From contig JAFWHB010000003.1 of assembly GCA_017512145.1 (NCBI GenBank), positions 7,629 through 71,628 of the forward strand: a stretch of 64,000 nucleotides of DNA, given 5' to 3'. The translations under genes and the position numbers were made by a program. The DNA comes from Mogibacterium sp. GTDB taxonomy: Bacteria; Bacillota; Clostridia; Peptostreptococcales; Anaerovoracaceae. Below are positions 24,817 through 62,850 of this stretch, in pieces; within the stretch, counting starts at the first letter, position 1, and every line of letters begins with the position of its first letter. A model generated the notes under the pieces. It was given only the letters and a program-made list of their open reading frames with translations, had not been told where the DNA came from and did no database searches.

Positions 24817-25782
24817 ATGAAACCTTACTATATCAAAGACCTTAAGCCGGACGACAATCACCACCTCGAAGACAGATTCCTTGTCAGGAATGCTGATATC
24901 AGAGACGGGAACAATGGCAAGCGCCACCTGTATATGACACTTGCAGACGCAACCGGCGATATACAGGCCGTCAAATGGACTCTTACACCTGATGAGATCG
25001 CATCGTACAGCAAGATCCGTACAGGAATGATCATTACCGTAGCTGCAAGATGCAAGGAATATCAGGGCAAGAATCAGCTTGTCATTGATGTCATCAAGGG
25101 AAGAGCCAAGGACGATACATACGACAGAGCGGATTTTTTCAAGGCTGCTCCTGAGTCACCTGAGGGGATGTATGAATATATCCTCAGCAGGATCAATGCC
25201 TTCGAAGACGAAGACCTCAGAGATCTCTGCCTCAGCTTCTATGAAGACGAGAAGGACAGACTCATGTATTATCCTGCTGCAATGAGCAATCATCATGCTG
25301 AGTATGCAGGACTTCTGTATCACGTCAAGAGAATGATGATGATGGGGGAGAGAGCATGCGAAGTATACACATTCCTGAACAAGGACCTGCTGCTCGCAGG
25401 CGTGGCTCTGCATGACATCGAGAAGCTGAACGAACTTAATTCTGACGAGAACGGAGTCGTTCCTGACTACACTCTTGAGGGCAAAATGCTCGGACACCTT
25501 GTCATGGGCGTTGCTGCGATTGGTGAGAGATGCAGGGACCTCGGGCTTGACGAAGAGAAGTGCCTCATGATGCAGCATATGGCTCTGAGCCATCATTATG
25601 AACCTGAATACGGCAGCCCTAAGAAGCCTCTGTTCCCTGAGGCTGAGATGCTCCACTATCTGGACATGACAGATGCCAAGATGTTCGACATGGAGGAAGC
25701 CCTCGAGAATGTTGAACCGGGAGAATTCAGCGACAAGGTATACACCCTTGACAACAGAAAACTTTACAAGAGAACATTCTGA
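24817..25782 (+). CDS. yhaM: 3'-5' exoribonuclease YhaM-like (OB-fold plus HD domain)
   Basis: N-terminal OB-fold region, then an HD domain (HHAEYAGLLYH...LHDIEK). Confidence 0.75.
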   Translation: MKPYYIKDLKPDDNHHLEDRFLVRNADIRDGNNGKRHLYMTLADATGDIQAVKWTLTPDEIASYSKIRTGMIITVAARCKEYQGKNQLVIDVIKGRAKDDTYDRADFFKAAPESPEGMYEYILSRINAFEDEDLRDLCLSFYEDEKDRLMYYPAAMSNHHAEYAGLLYHVKRMMMMGERACEVYTFLNKDLLLAGVALHDIEKLNELNSDENGVVPDYTLEGKMLGHLVMGVAAIGERCRDLGLDEEKCLMMQHMALSHHYEPEYGSPKKPLFPEAEMLHYLDMTDAKMFDMEEALENVEPGEFSDKVYTLDNRKLYKRTF

Positions 25783-25792
25783 CAGGTAACTG

Positions 25793-28024
25793 ATGCAGAG
25801 GGAAGGTAAGCTTAGCAGAATAATATTCAACAATGCAGAGAACGGCTATACAGTTGCAGTCTTCGATACTGAAGAAGGCTCATTCAGAATAGCCGGCTCT
25901 TTTGCTGAACCGAGAATCGGAGCCAAATACAGGCTTGAAGGCAAATTTACCATACATGCCAGATATGGCGAGCAATTCAGCTTCTCAAGTTACGAGGAGC
26001 TCCTGCCTGAAGGTGAGGACGCTATACTTGAATTCCTTTCAGCCGGCAATATCAGGGGCATAGGACCTAAGACCGCAAAGACTATCGTGGAGACCTTCGG
26101 AGAAGAATCCCTCGAAGTAATTGAGAAGACTCCTGAGAAGCTCCTGAGCATCAGCGGCATCGGCCCTAAGTCGCTTGCTAAGATCGCAGAGTCATTCGGT
26201 GAATCAAGAGAATTCGCCAGCGTCTCGATCGAGCTGAGAGAGCTTGGGATCGAAATGTCTGATGCGGTCAGGATTTATAAGATCTACGGCAGCGACTCTG
26301 TAAGTATTGTAAAGGAGAATCCTTATATCCTTGTTGAAGACATTCGCGGGATAACTTTTCCTAAGGCTGATAGTATAGCTGCCAGACTCGGCTTCGAGCC
26401 GGGCAGCACGTTCAGGATCGAGAGCGGGATCAGATATGCCCTGAGATCATGGGCTTCGAGCGGCAGCACTCTTATGCCTGAGGAGCTTCTTGTGGAGAAG
26501 GTAGCAGAGCTTCTTGATATTACAAGAGAGGAAGTCGCTGATTCACTCAGGGATCTTGTGTTCAACGGGGAACTCGAAGAAGACAGGATAGATGATATTC
26601 CTGTCATATATCTGTACGGATACTATCAGGCGGAGCAGAGAGTAGCCTTCAATATCGGGAGGATCCACGATGCTCCTGTCAGGCAGATTCCGGCATCTAT
26701 CGAGGACCTTATCAGTGATGCGGAGGCGGGCCTTGCTGCTGACGGCATGAGCTATGTAACGCTTTCCGAGGAACAGGAGAACGCTGTCCGTGCAAGTCTA
26801 CTGACGAACATCTCCATCATCACCGGAGGTCCGGGAACAGGTAAGACAACGATTATAAATATATTAGTCAGGATATTCAGAAGACTGGGCCTTGAAGTGG
26901 CGCTGGCCGCACCGACCGGAAGAGCCGCCAAGAGAATGGAAGAGGCATCCGGCGAGCCTGCGATGACGATCCACCGCCTTCTTGAATACGTATACTCTGA
27001 GGACGAGGAAACTCTCAACTTTGGCAGGGACGAAGAGAACCCGCTCGAACAGGACGTTATCATCGTAGATGAGGCGTCCATGATCGACATAATGCTGATG
27101 GATGGACTTCTTAATGCTGTCAAGAGCGGCACTGTGCTGATTTTCACAGGAGACGCCGACCAGCTGCCTTCTGTCGGAGCAGGCAATGTTCTGAGAGATA
27201 TGATAGCAAGTGAATATATCCATACCACAAGGCTCAGAGAGATTTTCCGTCAGGCCGGCGGCAGCAAGATAATAACCAATTCGCACCTTATCAACAATGG
27301 AGAGTACCCGGAGCAGGGGCTCAGCGGGGATGATTTCTTCATACTCCGCAAGGACAGCGAGAACGAGATCCTTGACACCATCAGAGAAATGGTCGAAGGC
27401 AGGATAGCAAAGGGCTTTGAATTCATAAGCTCTGCCTCGGATATCCAGATCCTGACGCCGACTAAGAGAGGAGCTCTCGGGGCTCCAAGCCTGAACAGCG
27501 TTCTTCAGGATGTCATCAATCCGGCGGAAGAGGGCGACCCTGAGCTCAGAATAGGCAGCAAGGTCTTCAGGACCGGCGACAAAGTCATGCAGCTGAGGAA
27601 CAACTACGGCGCAGAGTGGAGAGACGAACTCACATGGGCTGAGGGAGAGGGCATCTTCAATGGTGACATGGGAACAGTTGAGAGCATCAACCTTCATGAC
27701 AAGAGCATGATCGTAAAGTCTGACGACAGGCTGATAACATATTCGGGCGACATGTTCGATGAGATCGATTTTGCGTATGCGATCACAGTTCACAAGAGTC
27801 AGGGTACAGAGTTCCCGGCAGTTATCATACCTGCATGGAGATTCCCTCCGATGCTGATGACAAGGAATCTACTGTACACAGCTGTGACAAGAGGCAAGAA
27901 GCTCGTTCTGATAATAGGTGACCCTCGCTGCGTTCAGATGATGATAGACAATAACCGTGCTGACGGAAGGTATACAGGACTGAGAGCCCGCCTTCAGCAG
28001 CTCGATACACCTGCTTTTTTCTAG
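25793..28024 (+). CDS. recD2: RecD2-type ATP-dependent DNA helicase
   Basis: Walker A GGPGTGKTT, Walker B IIVDEASM, HhH-like repeats (GIGPKTA, GIGPKSLA), and a C-terminal SH3-like/2B region. Confidence 0.9.
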   Translation: MQREGKLSRIIFNNAENGYTVAVFDTEEGSFRIAGSFAEPRIGAKYRLEGKFTIHARYGEQFSFSSYEELLPEGEDAILEFLSAGNIRGIGPKTAKTIVETFGEESLEVIEKTPEKLLSISGIGPKSLAKIAESFGESREFASVSIELRELGIEMSDAVRIYKIYGSDSVSIVKENPYILVEDIRGITFPKADSIAARLGFEPGSTFRIESGIRYALRSWASSGSTLMPEELLVEKVAELLDITREEVADSLRDLVFNGELEEDRIDDIPVIYLYGYYQAEQRVAFNIGRIHDAPVRQIPASIEDLISDAEAGLAADGMSYVTLSEEQENAVRASLLTNISIITGGPGTGKTTIINILVRIFRRLGLEVALAAPTGRAAKRMEEASGEPAMTIHRLLEYVYSEDEETLNFGRDEENPLEQDVIIVDEASMIDIMLMDGLLNAVKSGTVLIFTGDADQLPSVGAGNVLRDMIASEYIHTTRLREIFRQAGGSKIITNSHLINNGEYPEQGLSGDDFFILRKDSENEILDTIREMVEGRIAKGFEFISSASDIQILTPTKRGALGAPSLNSVLQDVINPAEEGDPELRIGSKVFRTGDKVMQLRNNYGAEWRDELTWAEGEGIFNGDMGTVESINLHDKSMIVKSDDRLITYSGDMFDEIDFAYAITVHKSQGTEFPAVIIPAWRFPPMLMTRNLLYTAVTRGKKLVLIIGDPRCVQMMIDNNRADGRYTGLRARLQQLDTPAFF

Positions 28025-28028
28025 AACC

Positions 28029-28796
28029 ATGGAATTAATAAGAGCTTTATTCAAAGAGACGCTGGATCTTATATATCCTCCGTCTCTTTACTGCATTTGC
28101 TGCGGTAAGATAATAGACCAGACAAGAACATACAGACTCTGCAATGACTGCATGGACGGCCTCAAATGGATAGGGGACAGGACATGCAGGAAATGCGGCA
28201 AACGCCTCTCATCTGTCAATCCGGGGGAGGTTTGTTTTAACTGCAGAGAACACGGGCACTCCTTTGATTTCGGTTATACCTGCACAGAATACGGAACTCA
28301 TGAGAGGGCGATGGTGTTCTCTCTTAAATATGACGGCAGAACCGACATCGCGGATACGATCGGAGAGATCATGTACGACAGGATGGCGGCAGAATTCGGC
28401 AGCGATGGACTTGCATCGAATTACGACATCATCGTGCCTGTTCCGGTGCACCGCAGCAAGCGGGAAACAAGAGGCTTCAACCAGGCGATGCTCATCGCAT
28501 GCAGCTTCTGCAGAAGGGCCGGCCTCAGGGCGGATGATGACATTCTGGTCAGAGTCAGGCAGACACATATCATGAGATCCCTCGGACCTGATGAAAGACG
28601 CGAGAACATAAGAGGAGCCTTTGAGATCAGAAAGAGAAGGATCCCAGACATCCAGGGCAAGAGGATACTCATCATAGACGACATCTACACGACAGGCGCG
28701 ACAGCCGATGAGATCGCGGCACTTCTCAAATCCGGCGGAGCTGCTTCTGTAGATATACTTTCCTTCGCAGCCGGAGCAGACATGGTCAAATCCTGA
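28029..28796 (+). CDS. comFC: ComF-family phosphoribosyltransferase-like protein
   Basis: N-terminal CxxC x4 zinc-finger region and PRTase motif ILIIDDIYTTGAT. Confidence 0.85.
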   Translation: MELIRALFKETLDLIYPPSLYCICCGKIIDQTRTYRLCNDCMDGLKWIGDRTCRKCGKRLSSVNPGEVCFNCREHGHSFDFGYTCTEYGTHERAMVFSLKYDGRTDIADTIGEIMYDRMAAEFGSDGLASNYDIIVPVPVHRSKRETRGFNQAMLIACSFCRRAGLRADDDILVRVRQTHIMRSLGPDERRENIRGAFEIRKRRIPDIQGKRILIIDDIYTTGATADEIAALLKSGGAASVDILSFAAGADMVKS

Positions 28797-28821
28797 CAGG
28801 ATGTTCCCTTGTCAGGTTTTT
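28792..28821 (+). terminator. Rho-independent terminator overlapping the comFC stop
   Basis: cctgacagg / ccttgtcagg 9-bp stem (one G-U, which specifies the plus strand) followed by TTTTT. Confidence 0.8.
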
Positions 28822-28829
28822 GTGGTAGA

Positions 28830-29015
28830 ATAGGTGGTGATCGGGCGGGCATGTTCGTGGTTGAAAGTCCAGGCCAGATACGGGCAAAGGGATCCACGTA
28901 AGCAGTCAGCAGGAAGCGGCTGTGATCATGGCGTATCTTAGAAGTAAGTCCTCCGGAAACCGGGTTAAGGCAAGTGTGGGGTCAAAGACCAGGTCGAGTG
29001 CCCCGCCGGATCGGC
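28830..29015 (+). ncRNA. GC-rich structured RNA candidate; its position after comFC and before hpf matches the raiA-motif RNA class
   Basis: Long-range closing helix 28839-28849 / 29002-29012. Nested helices cgtgg/ccacg (28856-60/28894-98), cagc/gctg and ccgg-aaa-ccgg. No plausible ORF or RBS. Flanking DNA is AT-rich. Confidence 0.5.
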
Positions 29016-29047
29016 TCTATTGTGTGAAATATTAGCGAAGAACAGAT

Positions 29048-29079
29048 ACATTTATTGACAGAGAAATGTCAATAAATGT
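29048..29079. promoter_or_regulatory. Perfect 13-bp inverted repeat (operator candidate) overlapping a TTGACA -35 box
   Basis: ACATTTATTGACA gagaaa TGTCAATAAATGT, followed by TATTAT as a -10 candidate. Confidence 0.55.
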
Positions 29080-29147
29080 ATTATTAATATAACAAGAATT
29101 AGACCGCGGTCTAAAATCAAGTCCAACACTTTCCATAACAATCAGAA

Positions 29148-30059
29148 ATGCACGCAATTACAAATATTCAGAAGTATTCAATACACGATGGCGATGGCAT
29201 CAGGACAACTGTTTTCTTCAAGGGTTGTCACCTCAGATGCCAGTGGTGCCACAATCCCGAGACGCAGAGATTCGAGCCGGAGCTTCAGGTAGATATTCCT
29301 AAGTGCACCGGATGCGGAAGATGCGTCAAAGTTTGCCCTCAGGGCGCAATCAGTATCTCAGCCGAAGGCAAGTCAGTAACCGACAGAGATAAATGTATCA
29401 TCTGCGGTAAGTGCGTCAATGCATGTCTCGGCAATTACCGTACTGTCGTAGGACAGGAATATACTGTTAAGGAACTCGTGAAGAAGTGCCTTCAGGATCA
29501 GATGTTCTATGAAGAATCAGGCGGAGGCGTTACTCTCTCAGGCGGTGAAGTCATGGCCATGGATACAGAGTACATTCAGGCTTTGTGCAAGGCTCTTCAC
29601 AGAGAGGGAATATCCGTAACCATAGATACGTGCGGACAGGCGCCTTACAGCAACTATGAGGCGATAATCCCTTATGTAGACACCTGGCTGTACGATGTGA
29701 AGGTCATGGATGACGATCTCCACAAGAAGTACATGGGTATGGGCAACAAGCTCATACTGGAGAACCTTGTCAGACTTGCGAAGACAGGTGCGAGAATATA
29801 CATACGCATCCCTGTGGTCAAGGAGGTCAACGGCAACTGGGAATCAATGGCGGACATCATTGACTTCCTCAAGAAGAACGACATAAGACCGCCGCAGGTC
29901 AATCTCCTGCCTTATCACAGCACAGGTTCCCACAAGTATGGCAAACTCGGAATGGAGTATCCGGGACAGCTTCTTACAACCCCGACAGATGAGGAGATGC
30001 AGGACTTTGTCAGACAGTGGAACGAAGCAGGCTTCTCAAATGTCAAGATAGGCGGATAA
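29148..30059 (+). CDS. Glycyl-radical enzyme activating protein (radical SAM, with extra ferredoxin-like clusters)
   Basis: CHLRCQWCHNPE radical-SAM motif, plus CTGCGRCVKVCP and CIICGKCVNAC. Confidence 0.9.
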   Translation: MHAITNIQKYSIHDGDGIRTTVFFKGCHLRCQWCHNPETQRFEPELQVDIPKCTGCGRCVKVCPQGAISISAEGKSVTDRDKCIICGKCVNACLGNYRTVVGQEYTVKELVKKCLQDQMFYEESGGGVTLSGGEVMAMDTEYIQALCKALHREGISVTIDTCGQAPYSNYEAIIPYVDTWLYDVKVMDDDLHKKYMGMGNKLILENLVRLAKTGARIYIRIPVVKEVNGNWESMADIIDFLKKNDIRPPQVNLLPYHSTGSHKYGKLGMEYPGQLLTTPTDEEMQDFVRQWNEAGFSNVKIGG

Positions 30060-30130: not shown

Positions 30131-32503
30131 ATGGAAGAACGCGGAATGAATGCAAGAATCAAGGCGCTTCGCAAGGTCAGCATGGAGACACAGCCACACA
30201 TCGACCTCGAGAGAGCAAAGATCGAAACAGAAGTTTATAAGGAATGGGAAGACAAGGTTTCTCTGCCTGTTCTCAGAGCACTCGTTCTTAAGGAGTACTT
30301 CAGCAAGAAGACTCTTTATCTTGGCGAGGGAGAGCTGATCGTAGGCGAGAAGGGTAAGGATCCGCAGTCCTCACCTACATTCCCTGAACTTACATGTCAT
30401 ACACTTGAAGATATGCACATCATGAACGACAGAGCAGTTGTTAACTACACTGTCACTGAGCAGGATCTCAAGGATCAGGAAGAGATCATCATCCCTTACT
30501 GGAAGGGTAAGTCAATGAGAGACAAGCTGCTCGCAAGCATGACAGACGAGTGGAAGGAATGCTATGCTGCAGGAATGTTCACAGAGTTCATGGAGCAGAG
30601 AGGTCCTGGACATACTTGCGGAGGCAAGAATGTATTCATCAAGGGCTATGCTGATTACAAGATCGAGATCCAGGAAGCAATCGATGCACTCGATTTCATG
30701 AATGACCCTGAAGCTCTTGCTAAGAAGGACGAGCTCGAAGCTATGCTCATCGACTGCGATGCAGTAATGATCCTCGGCCAGAGATATCATGACCTCCTCA
30801 AGGAAGAGGCTGCAAAGTGCGAAGATCCTGTCCGCAAGGCTGAACTCGAGCAGATGGCTGCAAACCTTGAAGTCGTTCCTGCTCACAAGCCACAGACATA
30901 CTGGCAGGCAATCCAGCTTTACTGGTTTACACACCTTGCTGTAACAACAGAGCTCAACCCATGGGATGCTTTCAGCCCGGGAAGACTCGACCAGCATCTG
31001 TTCCCATACTATGAGAAGGACGTAGAAGACGGCATCCTTGATGACGAGAGAGCTCTTGAACTTCTCGAGTGCCTCTGGGTCAAGTTCAACAACCAGCCTG
31101 CACCAGTCAAGGTAGGCGTAACACTCAAGGAGAGCGGAACCTACACTGACTTTGCCAACATCAACACAGGCGGAATCAAAGAAGACGGAACTAACGGCGT
31201 TAACGCTGTCAGCTATCTTATCCTCGACTGCATGGATGAGATGAAGCTCGTTCAGCCTAACTCCAACGTTCAGATCAGCAAGAAGACTCCTCAGAAGTTC
31301 CTCAAGAGAGCTTGTGAGATTTCAAGAAAAGGCTGGGGACAGCCGGCATTCTACAACACTGATGAGATCGTACAGGAGCTCCTCAACGCAGGTAAGACTC
31401 TTGACGACGCAAGACAGGGCGGTTCATCAGGCTGTGTAGAGACTGGTTCATGGGGCAACGAGGCATACATCCTGACAGGATACCTCAACATCCCTAAGAT
31501 CTTCCAGCTCACAATGTACAATGGCTTTGACAATCAGTCCGGCAAGCAGCTCGGTCTCAAGACTGGCGATGTAAGGGACTTCAAGTCATATGATGAGCTC
31601 TGGGATGCTTTCAAGAAGCAGCTCCACCACATGGTAGACATCAAGGTTCGCGGCAACAATGTGATCGAGAAGCTTTACGCTAATTACATGCCGGCACCAT
31701 GCCTGTCGATCGTTACTAACGACTGTATCAAGAAGGGCAAGGACTACAACAATGGCGGATCAAGATACAACACCAGATATATCCAGGGTGTAGGTATCGG
31801 AACCATCACAGACTGCCTCAGCGCAATCAAGTACAATGTATTTGACAACAAGAACTTCACCATGGAAGAGCTTGTCAAGGCTATGGATGACAACTTCGAA
31901 GGACACGAAGAGATCTTCAACATGGTATGCAACAAGACTCCTAAGTATGGTAACGATGATGACTATGCTGATGACATCATGCAGGATGTATTCAAGCTCT
32001 ACAGAGACGAAGTAACAGGCCGTCCTACAATGAGCGGCGGACAGTATCATGTAGACATGCTTCCTACAACATGCCACATCTACTTCGGAGAGGTCATCGG
32101 AGCAACAGCTAACGGCAGACTTGCTAATAAGCCTGTTTCGGAAGGTATCTCACCTGAGAAGTTCGCTGATACAAACGGCCCTACAGCTGTAATCAAGTCC
32201 TGCGCTAAGATGGACCACTGCTCAACAGGCGGAACTCTTCTTAACCAGAAGTTCACACCGAGCGCTATCGCTGGCGAGACAGGCCTTGACAACCTTGCAA
32301 GCCTTATCCGTACATACTTTGCAATGGATGGACACCACATCCAGTTCAACGTATTCGATAAGGAGACACTGCTCGAGGCACAGAAGCATCCGGATGATTA
32401 CAAGGATCTCATCGTCCGTGTAGCAGGTTACTCTGACTACTTCAGGAACCTCGATGAGGAGCTCCAGAACGAGATCATCAACCGTACAGCTCAGAGCTTC
32501 TAA
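30131..32503 (+). CDS. Glycyl radical enzyme, PFL2/glycerol-dehydratase clade (790 aa; candidate hydroxyproline-dehydratase-like)
   Basis: C-terminal glycyl-radical motif VRVAGYSDYF and catalytic-Cys loop GGSSGCVETG. The length fits HypD-type enzymes. Substrate cannot be established from sequence alone. Confidence 0.85.
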   Translation: MEERGMNARIKALRKVSMETQPHIDLERAKIETEVYKEWEDKVSLPVLRALVLKEYFSKKTLYLGEGELIVGEKGKDPQSSPTFPELTCHTLEDMHIMNDRAVVNYTVTEQDLKDQEEIIIPYWKGKSMRDKLLASMTDEWKECYAAGMFTEFMEQRGPGHTCGGKNVFIKGYADYKIEIQEAIDALDFMNDPEALAKKDELEAMLIDCDAVMILGQRYHDLLKEEAAKCEDPVRKAELEQMAANLEVVPAHKPQTYWQAIQLYWFTHLAVTTELNPWDAFSPGRLDQHLFPYYEKDVEDGILDDERALELLECLWVKFNNQPAPVKVGVTLKESGTYTDFANINTGGIKEDGTNGVNAVSYLILDCMDEMKLVQPNSNVQISKKTPQKFLKRACEISRKGWGQPAFYNTDEIVQELLNAGKTLDDARQGGSSGCVETGSWGNEAYILTGYLNIPKIFQLTMYNGFDNQSGKQLGLKTGDVRDFKSYDELWDAFKKQLHHMVDIKVRGNNVIEKLYANYMPAPCLSIVTNDCIKKGKDYNNGGSRYNTRYIQGVGIGTITDCLSAIKYNVFDNKNFTMEELVKAMDDNFEGHEEIFNMVCNKTPKYGNDDDYADDIMQDVFKLYRDEVTGRPTMSGGQYHVDMLPTTCHIYFGEVIGATANGRLANKPVSEGISPEKFADTNGPTAVIKSCAKMDHCSTGGTLLNQKFTPSAIAGETGLDNLASLIRTYFAMDGHHIQFNVFDKETLLEAQKHPDDYKDLIVRVAGYSDYFRNLDEELQNEIINRTAQSF

Positions 32504-32545: not shown

Positions 32546-32702
32546 ATTTGTTTAATAATTGACACCTGGTACACACATTTGGACTCCTTTGTATGCTATA
32601 ATAAATGTGAGCAAATATCGCCGCCCTGATGAGAGCGGATTACCGTCTCGATGGACCGGCGGTATGATAGGCTCTAGACTATATAATGAGGAGGTCCAGG
32701 AT

Positions 32703-33236
32703 ATGAAGATCCAGATTTCGGCTAAGAATTACCCAATGAGCGACAAGCTCAGCACCTACATCGAGAAGAAACTTGGCAAACTCGACAAATACTTCAACGA
32801 AGATGTAACAGCCAATGTAGTAGTATCCAAGCTTAGAGAGACACCTAAGTTCGAGGCAACGATCAATGCTAAACAGGCTGTTTTCAGAGCTGAGATGGCT
32901 AATGACAGCATCTATGATGCAGTAGATATGGCCACAGACAAGCTCGCCAACCAGATGTCCAAGCTCAAGGGCAAGCTGGAGGCAAGATATAAAGAGAACA
33001 AGGCCCTCAAACTCGAATTCGTTCCAGAACCTGAATCAGAAGAACTCGAAGATGAGATGGTCATCGTAAGAAGGAAGGAAGTAGAACTTGAGCCTATGGT
33101 AGCAGAAGAGGCTATTCTCCAGATGGAGATGCTCGGACATGACTTCTTCGTCTTCCTGGATATGGATACAGACGCAGTAAGCGTTGTTTACAGACGTAAG
33201 GGCAATGCATACGGCCTGATTGAGACAGACAGATAA
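32703..33236 (+). CDS. hpf: Ribosome hibernation promoting factor (long HPF / RaiA family)
   Basis: MKIQISAKN start, S30AE fold region and long-HPF C-terminal dimerisation domain (DFFVFLD...VVYRRKGNAYGLIE). GAGGAGG RBS. Confidence 0.9.
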   Translation: MKIQISAKNYPMSDKLSTYIEKKLGKLDKYFNEDVTANVVVSKLRETPKFEATINAKQAVFRAEMANDSIYDAVDMATDKLANQMSKLKGKLEARYKENKALKLEFVPEPESEELEDEMVIVRRKEVELEPMVAEEAILQMEMLGHDFFVFLDMDTDAVSVVYRRKGNAYGLIETDR

Positions 33237-52773: not shown

Positions 52774-52848
52774 GGCGCATTGGTCAAGCGGTTAAGACGT
52801 CGCCCTCTCACGGCGGAATCTGGGGTTCGATTCCCCAATGCGCTACCA
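52774..52848 (+). tRNA. tRNA-Glu (anticodon CUC), CCA encoded
   Basis: Hand-folded cloverleaf: 7-bp acceptor stem GGCGCAT/ATGCGCT, anticodon stem TCGCC/GGCGG with loop CTCTCAC, T-arm TGGGG-TTCGATT-CCCCA, 3' ACCA. Confidence 0.85.
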
Positions 52849-54027: not shown

Positions 54028-54155
54028 AATATTTATAGATTATTTCGATTCACTCTAACAATGTATTCAAAAAACACATAAAAAGCATTGAAATAATTAC
54101 CCAATATTGATATTCTCTTAACAAGAAATAGGGGCCAATTAAATAAAGGGCTTAT

Positions 54156-54305
54156 TCCTTCCGAGAGAGAATCATCCGGTGCATTTATTTAGATGCTATC
54201 TCGTAATCACATGGCATGACACTGAAGGATGATCGCTGAAGAGGCAAATTCCTGTTAACTGGCACTGACTGGAACGAAACTTTCAAGCAAAAGGACCGGA
54301 ACGGA
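54156..54305 (+). promoter_or_regulatory. Glycine-riboswitch-like aptamer (apparently a single aptamer with a long P2 insertion)
   Basis: CGAGAGAG (compare GGAGAG), CGCTGAAGAGGCAA (compare CACCGAAGGGGCAA) and CAAGCAAAAGGACCGG (compare CAGGCAAAAGGAC). P1 is tccttccg / cggaacgga and P2 is atcatcc / ggatgat. Confidence 0.55.
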
Positions 54306-54340
54306 TACCTATTTCTGGATCTTTAATAACATTGAAACAG

Positions 54341-56206: not shown

Positions 56207-57520
56207 ATGGCTAAGATCAAAGTGGTTCACTATATCAACCAGTTCTTCGCCGGAATCGGCGGAGAAGAAAAAGCCGACATCCCTGCTGAACTCCACAAGG
56301 CTGAGGTCATAGGACCGGGAATGGCGTTCAACACCGGATTTGGTGATGAAGCAGAGATCATCGCTACTATCATCTGCGGTGATTCATACTTCAATGAAAA
56401 CATAGATGCTGTCAAGGCAGAGATCCTCGGATGGGTCAAAGAACTTGCACCAGACCTGTTCATCGCAGGACCTGCATTCAATGCAGGCCGTTACGGAGTT
56501 GCATGCGGTACGATCGCAGCAGCAGTTCAGGAGGAGCTGGGCATCAAGTCAATGACAGGAATGTATGTTGAGAACCCTGGTGCAGATATGTACAAGGACA
56601 AGACATACATCCTCGAGACCAAGGACAGTGCTGCAGGTATGAGAGCTGCAGTCAAGAAGATGACAGCATTCGCTCTCAAGTATGCAAAGGGCGAGAAAAT
56701 CGGCGCATCCTGCGAAGAGGGTTACATGAATCAGGGCATAAGAGTCAACTTCTTCGAGAAGGAAAGAGGCTCTAAGAGAGCGGTAGATATGCTGATCGCA
56801 AAGCTTAACGATAAGCCGTTCGTAACAGAATATCCAATGCCTGACTTTGACAGAGTTGAACCAAATCCTGCAGTCAAGGATATGGCACACGCAACGATAG
56901 CTCTCGTAACTTCCGGTGGTATCGTACCTAAGGGCAACCCTGACCACATCGAAAGCTCAAGTGCTTCTAAGTTCGGCGAATACAGCCTTGCAGGCGTAAC
57001 CGATCTCGATGCTGACACATTTGAAACAGCTCACGGCGGATATGACCCTGTATATGCGAATGAAGATGCAGACAGAGTTCTGCCTGTGGATATCATGCGC
57101 GAACTCGAGAAGGAAGGCGTCATCGGCAAACTTCACGAGAAATACTATGCAACTGTAGGTAACGGCACAGCTGTTGCAAGTGCCAAGAAGTACGGTGCAG
57201 AAATAGGCAAGAGACTGGTGGCTGACGGAGTAGACGCAGTTATACTCACCTCCACGTGAGGAACCTGCACTCGTTGCGGCGCAACGATGGTTAAAGAGCT
57301 CGAAAGAGCCGGACTCCCTGTTGTTCACGTATGCACAGTAACACCTATTTCTATGACAGTAGGCGCTAACAGGATCGTACCTGCTATCGCTATCCCGCAT
57401 CCTCTGGGCAATCCTGCTCTTGATAAGGATGAGGAGAAGAAGCTTCGCCGCAAACTCGTAGTGAAGGCTCTCGGAGCACTTCAGACCGAGGTTGACGGAC
57501 AGAAGGTTTTTGAAGATTAG
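56207..57520 (+). CDS. grdB: Selenoprotein B (component B gamma subunit), GrdB type, with in-frame UGA = Sec at codon 351
   Basis: ORFs 56207-57259 and 57287-57520 are in the same frame. The junction reads LTST-U-GTCTRCGATMV, the UxxCxxC motif. A SECIS-like hairpin follows. Confidence 0.85.
57262..57292 (+). promoter_or_regulatory. SECIS-like hairpin 3 nt downstream of the grdB UGA
   Basis: AACC tgcac TCGTTGC ggc GCAACGA t GGTT. 38 of 40 nt are identical to the equivalent region of the second module. Confidence 0.7.
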
Positions 57521-61533: not shown

Positions 61534-62850
61534 ATGAAGAAAGTAATTTGTTACGTCAACCAGTTCTTCGGCGGAATCGGCGGAGAAGACAAGGCTGACC
61601 AGGAACCATACATCGTTGAAGGCGTTGTAGGTCCTACAATGGCGATCAATGCAGCCCTCAAGGATGCAGAGGTTACTCATACTGTAGTATGCGGTGACAA
61701 CTTCATGGGATCCAATACTGAAGAAGCTCTTTCGAGAATCATGGGATTCCTCGAAGGCAAAGAGATGGATCTCTTCATCGCAGGTCCTGCTTTCCAGGCC
61801 GGACGTTATGGCGTTGCATGCGGTAATGTCTGCAAAGCAGTTAAGGAAAAGTTCGGAGTTCCTGTACTCACATCAATGAATGGTGAGAACCCGGGAGCTG
61901 ACATGTTCAAGAAAGACGTAATCATCTTCAAGGGCGGCACAGGCGCTGTAAAGATGAGACAGGACGTCAAAGTTCTGACCAACTTCGCTAATAAGCTTCT
62001 TGCCGGCGAGCCTAACCTCGGATGCGAAGCAGAAGGTTATTTCGAAAGAGGATGCAGACACGAAGTATTCCTTGAGGACATCAGAGAGAACACCGCTGCT
62101 TACAGAGGCATTCAGATGCTCAAGAAGAAGATGGCAGGCGAGCCTTATCAGACAGAGCTTATTATCCCTGAGAAGGATCTCGTTCCTATCGCACCTGCAA
62201 TTGAACTTAAGGACGCTGTAGTTGCTCTCGTAACTACATCCGGCTGCGTACCTGTAGAGAACCCTGACAGAATTCAGTCAGCATCCGCTACAAGATGGGG
62301 CAGATACAGCATCAAGGATATGGACAGACTCGAAGCTGGCGTATTCAAGACAATCCATGCTGGTTATGACCCTGCAGCAGGTAATGCAGACCCTAACGTA
62401 CTCGTTCCGCTCGATGCTGTAAGAGCATATGAGAAGGAAGGCAAGTTCGCAAGACTGCATGACTACTTCTACACAACAGTAGGTACCGGTACAACAGAAG
62501 CTGAAGCTACAAGAATGGCAGAGGAAATGGTTCCTTATCTCCGCGAAGATGGGGTTAACGCTATTATCCTCGGCTCAACCTGAGGAACCTGTACTCGTTG
62601 CGGCGCAACGATGGTTAAGGCTCTTGAGAGAGCAGGCTTCAACGTTGTACATATGTGCAACCTGATCCCAGTATCGATGACAGTCGGAGCTAACAGAATC
62701 GTTCCTACTATCTCGATCCCATATCCTCTCGGCGATCCTAATACACCGAAGGAAGAACAGTGGAAGCTGCGTTATCACAGAGTAGGTGTTGCTCTTGATG
62801 CAATCGCCACTGACGTTACAGAACAGACTGTTTTCAAGGTAAGAATCTAG
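61534..62850 (+). CDS. grdH: Selenoprotein B paralog, GrdH type, with in-frame UGA = Sec at codon 350
   Basis: ORFs 61534-62583 and 62611-62850 are in the same frame. The junction reads ILGST-U-GTCTRCGATMV. Confidence 0.8.
62586..62616 (+). promoter_or_regulatory. SECIS-like hairpin downstream of the grdH UGA
   Basis: Same hairpin as at 57262-57292 with a single C/T difference. Confidence 0.7.

Follow-up and report, generated by a model that had tools for sequence, protein, structure and literature searches.

What occupies the space between comFC and the genes that follow it is the question raised by this locus. In the 64,000-nt stretch of Mogibacterium sp. DNA analysed here (the window), the initial annotation, which was made without database searches, had noticed a structured, GC-rich segment of about 185 nt after the comFC terminator, and had proposed that it corresponds to a raiA-motif RNA located between comFC and hpf or, failing this, to an unassigned structured RNA. 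A raiA RNA at this position raises the further question of whether it acts on the genes standing downstream, which are here those of a hydroxyproline dehydratase, or in its own right.

A single raiA RNA copy downstream of comFC

The whole window was scanned against 4227 Rfam families (cmscan), as had been suggested in the initial annotation, and the sole match in the comFC-downstream region is RF03072 (raiA RNA), at 28844-29007 on the + strand, with a score of 124.7 bits that exceeds the gathering score of 101.3 (E 3.2e-30). The match spans model positions 1-209, is not truncated and is found on the + strand only. A search of the 2.36-Mb genome with the RF03072 model yields no second raiA RNA copy and gives the same result as the window scan for the copy analysed here. 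The alignment to the model evidences a large deletion in the P6 region, where 7 + 8 nt replace 15 + 43 model positions, and this accounts for a score below the 170-190 bits of the longer forms (200-218 nt), a large P6-P8 domain being expected by the model. Given this match the fallback of an unassigned structured RNA is not needed, and the raiA-motif proposal is borne out by the RF03072 score together with the covariation and gene context described below. The element is a single genomic copy of the raiA-motif (ModT) RNA, of the short subtype lacking P2 and P8; as such it is ordinary, the family having been described and its structure solved, and the genus being already known to carry raiA RNA:

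28844-29007, + strand: raiA motif (ModT) RNA, short subtype, assigned from the RF03072 match, the cryo-EM-mapped pairs, covariation and identity to the M. pumilum RNA.

The element measures 164 nt as the Rfam match, or ~176 nt (28838-29013) when an extension of helix P1 is included, which means that it stands where it had been placed and is slightly shorter than first estimated. Its GC content is 57.3% (28844-29007), against 46.8% in the upstream spacer, 31.1% in the downstream spacer and 47.8% in the whole window, thus clearly higher than in the spacers, as had been noticed, and modestly higher than in the flanking coding DNA (49-50%). A coding role for 28844-29007 was rejected, as the open reading frames inside the element are mechanical only (28-37 aa) and carry no coding sign, which agrees with the absence of an ORF noted initially; a 70-aa minus-strand ORF enters the element from comFC.

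An RF03072 match is present in 22 of the 24 other genomes sampled from the genus, the matches above the cut-off being all ~160-167 nt long and a further one, in genome G011, falling below the cut-off, and also in 9 of the 16 genomes taken from the order's other families, in which it takes the longer 200-218-nt forms with 170-190 bits. A degenerate 51-nt pattern of the core finds 64 further exact-match loci in named genomes, many from rumen and gut metagenomes and including M. pumilum ATCC 700696, M. timidum ATCC 33093 and M. diversum. Nearly all of these are titled Mogibacterium, Anaerovoracaceae, Clostridiales/Eubacteriales/Clostridia or Candidatus Crickella, the exceptions being one titled Sphaerochaetaceae and one only 'bacterium'. 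The Mogibacterium/Anaerovoracaceae host itself lies within the range expected for raiA (Bacillota including Clostridia, or Actinomycetota).

The test for covariation among relatives, which had also been suggested, was carried out on a 30-copy alignment and shows that the fold covaries. In this alignment 79 columns are invariant and the share of cells with standard pairs is 89%, falling to 35-44% once the 3' partners are shifted by 1-3 columns; none of 500 shuffles attains the observed covariation score. Within the 30 sequences PK1 is paired in 100% of cells, with changes on both sides at 4 of its 6 pairs (e.g. A-U to C-G or U-G), and compensatory changes occur too in P1b (U-A/C-G and C-G/U-A), P5 and P7. 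P3a and P3b are likewise 100% paired and PK2 is 96.7% paired, invariant and without covariation; P1c, P4, P6 and PK2 are invariant in this set, and as such speak neither for nor against the fold. A single-sequence fold, with an MFE of -63.8 kcal/mol, is not significant alone (z = -1.62, 16 of 200 shuffles being as stable), as expected because the RNA is pseudoknotted: MFE folding cannot model pseudoknots and mis-draws the core, and was left out of the evidence. The support for the fold is provided by the covariance model and the comparative data, not by thermodynamics. The weak z-score would suit a GC-rich spacer in which inverted repeats have arisen by accident, against which stand an E value of 3e-30 to a curated model, the 64 further exact matches to the degenerate pattern, and the invariant columns with compensatory changes across 30 genomes; a chance origin, whose probability we regard as practically nil, is excluded by the RF03072 match, the invariant columns and the covariation.

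The fold mapped on the solved structures

An explicit 164-nt structure was drawn from the descriptions in PMC12968392 and PMC10861870, with index 1 corresponding to window position 28844. The features which the published cryo-EM structures define all find a place on 28844-29007 with standard pairs (51 of 51 mapped pairs), P2 and P8 being absent from the mapped structure, which places it in the short subtype. This short (small-hairpin) variant makes up 32% of the raiA family (PMC10861870). The elements are the following, all on the + strand:

P1a (+): index 1-9 / 155-164, window 28844-52/28998-29007, nine pairs with one bulged C.
GU bulge between P1a and P1b (+): index 10-11, window 28853-54, present.
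P1b (+): index 12-14 / 152-154, window 28855-57/28995-97, three pairs.
GGU bulge separating P1b from P1c (+): index 149-151, window 28992-94, present.
P1c (+): index 15-18 / 145-148, window 28858-61/28988-91, four pairs.
GAAA junction after P1c (+): index 20-23, window 28863-28866, tetraloop-like as judged at the sequence level.
P3a (+): index 24-27 / 47-50, window 28867-70/28890-93, mapped pairs.
Internal loop joining P3a to P3b (+): asymmetric and A-rich, AG opposite AAAG.
P3b (+): index 30-32 / 40-42, window 28873-75/28883-85, mapped pairs.
PK1 (+): index 34-39 / 89-94, window 28877-28882 / 28932-28937, GAUACG of the P3b apical loop with CGUAUC after P5, six pairs.
P4 (+): index 51-54 / 133-136, window 28894-97/28976-79, mapped pairs.
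P5 (+): index 55-84, window 28898-28927, mapped pairs.
PK2 (+): index 86-87 / 140-141, the U and G at 28929-28930 forming U86-A141 and G87-C140 (A28984, C28983), inside AUGG and GGUCAAAG.
Exposed 10-nt linker UUAGAAGUAA from PK1 to P6 (+): index 95-104, window 28938-28947, proposed KhpA-KhpB site.
P6 (+): index 107-109 / 125-127, within P6-P7 at window 28950-28970, mapped pairs.
P7 (+): index 110-113 / 117-120, within P6-P7 at window 28950-28970, mapped pairs.
Bulge in place of P8 (+): after P7, 4 nt.
8-nt linker GGUCAAAG from P4 to P1c (+): window 28980-28987, holding the PK2 partners.

The mapping of PK2 follows PMC12968392. The bases of the G-G-C triple, which is a feature of the three-dimensional structure, are present at the sequence level (G10, G14, C152), and evidence of the same kind places A142 in the linker, under the same number as in Mp-raiA. 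The exposed linker UUAGAAGUAA matches the published UUAGA(C/A)GUAA (PMC12968392) and is nearly invariant in the 30-copy alignment. The structure line of RF03072 was discarded in favour of the cryo-EM description, as it draws PK1 as a nested helix of the ordinary kind and retains pairs of the old model (U50-G88, C51-G87 and a stem of three pairs at 28-30/132-134) which conflict with cryo-EM. Rfam also types the family as 'Cis-reg; riboswitch', the 2024-2026 literature describing a trans-acting RNA with a revised fold.

The closest known system is Mp-raiA from M. pumilum ATCC 700696, a 163-nt RNA whose cryo-EM structure is available as PDB 9E75 (He et al. 2026, PMC12968392). The two RNAs share 84% identity (163 vs 164 nt), both lack P2 and P8 and have a short P6-P7 bulge, and their cores are identical in the GAAA junction, the AAAG loop, P4, PK2, the UUAGAAGUAA linker and the GGU bulge, with the same numbering of G20/A21/A22/A142. 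Differences are found in PK1, where C-G of M. pumilum is replaced by A-U in a compensatory manner; in P5, longer by 2 nt in the window RNA and with compensatory differences; and in P7, shorter by 2 nt. P1a differs in sequence with its pairing kept, and the bulge after P7 has 4 nt instead of 5. Also, a HypD cassette follows the window RNA. In respect to the RF03072 family at large (Weinberg et al. 2017, PMC5737381; Soares et al. 2024, PMC10861870), the full-length match, the upstream comFC and the Clostridia host are shared, whereas the window RNA scores below the 200-218-nt forms and hpf does not stand next to it. In Clostridioides difficile, ModT (Lence et al. 2024, PMC11706538) belongs to the same family and is also intergenic, with a sigma-A-type promoter as expected here, but has 215/260 nt in two 3' isoforms and contains P8, unlike the short form of the window; its expression, stability and phenotypes have been measured.

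Gene neighbourhood and the HypD cassette

The genes around the RNA are as follows:

24817-25782, + strand: gene for an OB/HD-domain protein, part of the upstream gene run.
25793-28024, + strand: RecD2 helicase gene, part of the upstream gene run.
28029-28796, + strand: comFC-like gene (ComF family), with Pfam DZR_2 (2.6e-11) and Pribosyltran (1.7e-7).
29148-30059, + strand: radical-SAM activase of trans-4-hydroxy-L-proline dehydratase, NCBIfam NF043069, 439.8 bits (cut-off 425).
30131-32503, + strand: HypD (trans-4-hydroxy-L-proline dehydratase), a 790-aa glycyl-radical enzyme, NF043068, 1463.7 bits (cut-off 1100).
32559-33236, + strand: hpf, long form, the gene behind the name of the motif, Pfam Ribosomal_S30AE and S30AE_C, TIGR00741 72.1 bits (cut-off 40.9).

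The comFC product combines a double zinc ribbon with a phosphoribosyltransferase domain, and its score against NCBIfam TIGR00201 (ComF family) is 98.6 bits, below the cut-off of 233.55; the gene ends 47 nt upstream of the RNA. The order is comFC, RNA, HypD activase, HypD and hpf, the latter being the third gene downstream of the RNA. With its TTG start and 225 aa, the longest hpf ORF probably extends too far at the N-terminus, the true start being predicted near 32703 because the S30AE domain begins at residue 49-51 and relatives align from ~44-49. In the literature comFC precedes the motif in 74% of genomes (PMC10861870), and raiA/hpf is found downstream in 66%; the usual comFC/hpf neighbourhood is found here, being typical of the family and not defining it.

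The HypD pair comes after the RNA in 4 of 21 loci of the genus and in 9 of the 64 named loci, and in these named loci, provided that the locus is long enough, hpf is met ~3.8 kb after the RNA. In most other loci hpf lies within 100-900 nt of the RNA, directly or after a short ORF: the initial annotation had considered hpf the next conserved gene once the glycyl-radical enzyme cassette is ignored, and this is confirmed by relatives, most of which lack the cassette and have hpf close by. The cassette is not part of the RNA and, as judged from this distribution, looks like a clade-limited insertion at the comFC-RNA-hpf junction, which in a minority of species shows the RNA staying with comFC, and not with hpf, when the junction is split. 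The loci with the HypD pair between RNA and hpf are those of the window, L019, L024 and L027, and 9 of the loci L031-L094. A rearranged synteny is observed in L032, L048, L084, L068, L075 and L079, where the order is hpf (minus strand), comFC and raiA RNA, and recD2 is found on the minus strand after the raiA RNA in L032, L048 and L084; in this inverted neighbourhood the RNA stays with comFC. Elsewhere in the window, the Rfam matches above threshold are SECIS_4 at 57260-57297 and 62584-62621, a glycine riboswitch at 54152-54308 and a tRNA at 52774-52845, and the presence of two SECIS_4 elements and a glycine riboswitch in the same window as the HypD cassette fits a Stickland-type amino-acid metabolism.

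Predicted transcript ends, P1 extension and probable mode of action

A long-range helix with 10 of 11 pairs had initially been drawn as closing the RNA, and its arms lie exactly there: 10 of the 11 positions of GATCGGGCGGG (28839-28849) and CCCGCCGGATC (29002-29012) are paired, the exception being a G.G mismatch at 28843/29008, and the helix runs 5 nt past the Rfam match on each side. The features outside the match are:

28792-28821, + strand: terminator-like hairpin and T run at the comFC end, the hairpin at 28792-28816 having a 9-pair stem with 5 G-C pairs, followed by TTTTTG.
28821-28831, + strand: putative extended -10 promoter TGTGGTAGAAT, with the hexamer TAGAAT at 28826-28831, 12 nt upstream of the match.
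28838-28843, + strand: 5' strand of the P1 extension, 28838-28842 pairing with 29009-29013 and G28843/G29008 being mismatched.
29008-29013, + strand: 3' strand of the P1 extension, partner of 28838-28843.

We have analysed the flanks by taking 12 nt on either side of each RNA and comparing the duplex energy of each locus with that of flanks mixed across loci. Own flanks average -5.4 kcal/mol and mixed flanks -2.9 kcal/mol (67 distinct loci, Mann-Whitney p ~2e-15, a value which is overstated as the loci are related), with energies of -8.9 kcal/mol here, -9.6 in M. pumilum and -9.8 in M. timidum. The MAFFT alignment is unreliable at the outer P1a and the flanks, where the sequences are unrelated; because MAFFT cannot align the flanks, the low pairing of outer P1a and the 53% obtained in the 30-copy alignment for the four extra pairs of the closing helix are uninformative. 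In the Mogibacterium clade a mismatch or small loop is followed by ~5 further P1 pairs, which lie outside the Rfam and cryo-EM boundaries, and in this extension the pairing is conserved and the sequence is not. The 163-nt cryo-EM construct of Mp-raiA does not include it, the helix beyond P1a being conserved across this Anaerovoracaceae clade.

On the 5' side, the comFC terminator that had been placed before the element is recovered as the terminator-like hairpin at 28792-28816 and its T run. No good -35 box is present upstream of the RNA, for which reason a scan for two-hexamer promoters missed the upstream promoter, and the extended -10 box was found by aligning relatives. Of 84 related loci, 29 have the strict form TGnTA[ACT]AAT with its end 7-17 nt ahead of the RNA, where ~0.005 would be expected per locus. 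Transcription is predicted from the position of the box to start at ~28837-28839, 6-8 nt past it, which is the first base of the extended helix. In five loci (L014, L021, L025, L029, L030) the extended -10 box (GATGTGaTAAAAT) falls inside the last comFC codons (...A D V I K ...), and therefore the same bases encode the promoter and the ComFC C-terminus. The extended -10 box is lacking in 45 of the 84 related loci, most of which carry AAGTGAATAG directly against the RNA 5' end. Loci with a different upstream gene and the AAGTGAATAG box directly before the RNA are L012, L013, L015-L018, L020, L022, L023, L026 and many of L031-L094; in those of this subgroup that were examined, GTGCTAATCA stands directly 3' of the RNA, a small ORF (MSIMIDPTMNIP...) with a strong RBS lies ~25 nt downstream, before hpf, and no terminator is found between RNA and small ORF.

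The 3' side varies among relatives. Four have a clean intrinsic terminator directly after the RNA; L014 has the RBS and start of hpf itself within ~25 nt and no terminator, and such an arrangement in some relatives leaves room for co-transcription with the downstream gene there. No canonical intrinsic terminator is found on the + strand after the RNA in the window's genome. The spacer to the next start codon is AT-rich and 141 nt long, and holds a promoter-like site TTGACA-18-TATTAT at 29055-29084 (11 of 12 matches), whose -35 box is overlapped by a perfect AT-rich palindrome at 29046-29081. This palindrome was rejected as a terminator of the RNA, given this overlap with the HypD -35 box and the fact that similar repeats accompany the cassette in relatives: in L027 and L024 similar AT-rich inverted repeats surround the TTGACA box upstream of the cassette, and L024 has a separate RNA terminator. 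A second palindrome, TTAGACCGCGGTCTAA at 29099-29114, is nearly unchanged in L027 and more diverged, and partly read, in L024. The palindromes upstream of the HypD cassette suggest an operator travelling with it.

These signals bear on two readings in which the RNA would be part of a longer transcript. In one of them it is a cis-acting leader or riboswitch, whose sensing of a ligand controls the downstream gene (the HypD operon here, hpf in most relatives), in line with the 'Cis-reg; riboswitch' label of Rfam, with the location of the RNA on the same strand as the downstream genes and with the occurrence in several relatives of an RBS and start codon within ~25 nt and no terminator (hpf in L014, the small ORF in a large subgroup). 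However, in the window the 141-nt spacer with its own promoter-like site intervenes before the next start codon, and a separate promoter-like site and palindrome before the cassette argue against control of the latter by the RNA; there is also no terminator/antiterminator alternative or RBS-sequestering helix with P1, and no + strand terminator after P1. Further, the downstream gene varies among relatives (hpf, small ORF, HypD activase, inverted recD2), four of which have the clean terminator directly after the RNA, and published deletions were complemented in trans, the authors arguing against a riboswitch-like placement (PMC10861870, PMC11706538). We therefore hold control in cis to be most improbable: the raiA RNA is no leader of the downstream hydroxyproline dehydratase genes.

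The second of these readings has the RNA cut from a longer transcript, either comFC read-through or a downstream mRNA, with the extended P1 serving as the site of a double-strand-specific RNase. The conservation of the P1 extension in pairing and not in sequence speaks for this reading, and the lack of a terminator after the RNA in the window's genome, as well as the 45 of 84 loci without an extended -10, mostly with AAGTGAATAG at the 5' end and, in the subgroup examined, GTGCTAATCA 3' and a near ORF, point in the same direction; against this, a terminator-like hairpin closes comFC, the -10 box is so placed that transcription could start where the extended helix begins, and the C. difficile RNA has its own single sigma-A start and two termination sites (PMC11706538). 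On balance we find such processing unlikely for this RNA, maturation at P1 being possible especially in the subgroup without the -10 box. The conserved helix beyond P1a, together with the many relatives whose RNA directly abuts a downstream ORF or hpf and has no terminator, could also mean that the RNA is cut out at the extended P1 of a transcript common to it and hpf, an unlikely reading which, if true, would physically couple RNA production to the expression of the ribosome-hibernation factor. As to a self-standing ribozyme with the conserved core as its active site, the ~50 near-invariant nucleotides and the compact pseudoknotted core recall the speculation of the discoverers on large conserved bacterial RNAs (PMC10861870), but no activity has been reported, nothing in the window bears on catalysis, and in the cryo-EM papers the fold is described as stable, no pocket or substrate being identified. 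Catalysis is pure speculation, and very improbable.

We consider it very probable that the window encodes a raiA RNA which would have a promoter of its own and a triangular fold and would act in trans, most probably via KhpA-KhpB, and not as a HypD leader. From its sequence, the RNA would be transcribed from the extended -10 sigma-A-type promoter at 28821-28831, starting near 28838, and would fold into a compact triangular core (P3a/P3b, P4, PK1, PK2) from which the P1 arm protrudes. By analogy with its homologues it may accumulate as a stable and abundant RNA acting in trans, whose exposed linker UUAGAAGUAA most probably binds the KhpA-KhpB KH-domain heterodimer, and in this way it would influence the passage from growth into stationary phase as part of a ribonucleoprotein, an influence known from Clostridioides difficile and Clostridium acetobutylicum. 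In the literature, raiA/ModT RNAs count among the most abundant and most stable RNAs of the cell and act in trans, their loss delaying the transition to stationary phase and impairing sporulation and aggregation (PMC10861870, PMC11706538); in C. difficile the effect of ModT loss is exerted via c-di-GMP levels, ModT has its own single sigma-A start site and two termination sites, and modT has been exchanged for other orthologues (PMC11706538). KhpA-KhpB binds raiA RNAs including Mp-raiA, probably at the exposed linker, with a Kd of ~2 uM, a weak (micromolar) binding measured with C. acetobutylicum proteins (PMC12968392). An abundant trans-acting RNA that binds KhpA-KhpB is, on these analogies, the most likely role here.

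The raiA/ModT RNAs are among the most widespread bacterial structured RNAs of still-unknown biochemical function, and their correct annotation is therefore useful. The window copy adds no new kind of element; what it contributes beyond the family is minor, namely that P1 runs on past its published boundaries, that an extended -10 box is conserved upstream and that a HypD cassette stands at the comFC-RNA-hpf junction in a minority of species, details which may aid construct design and the mapping of transcript ends in culturable Mogibacterium.

As in the ModT system, KhpA, KhpB and c-di-GMP enzymes are encoded in the window's genome: KhpA (77 aa) in rpsP-khpA-rimM, KhpB/Jag with Jag_N, KH and R3H domains, and 7 GGDEF domain matches, from which c-di-GMP signalling is taken to be present. 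Mogibacterium is described as non-spore-forming, and a Spo0A_C match of 58 bits is found at G000:C19:40993-41289, in a 177-aa open frame.
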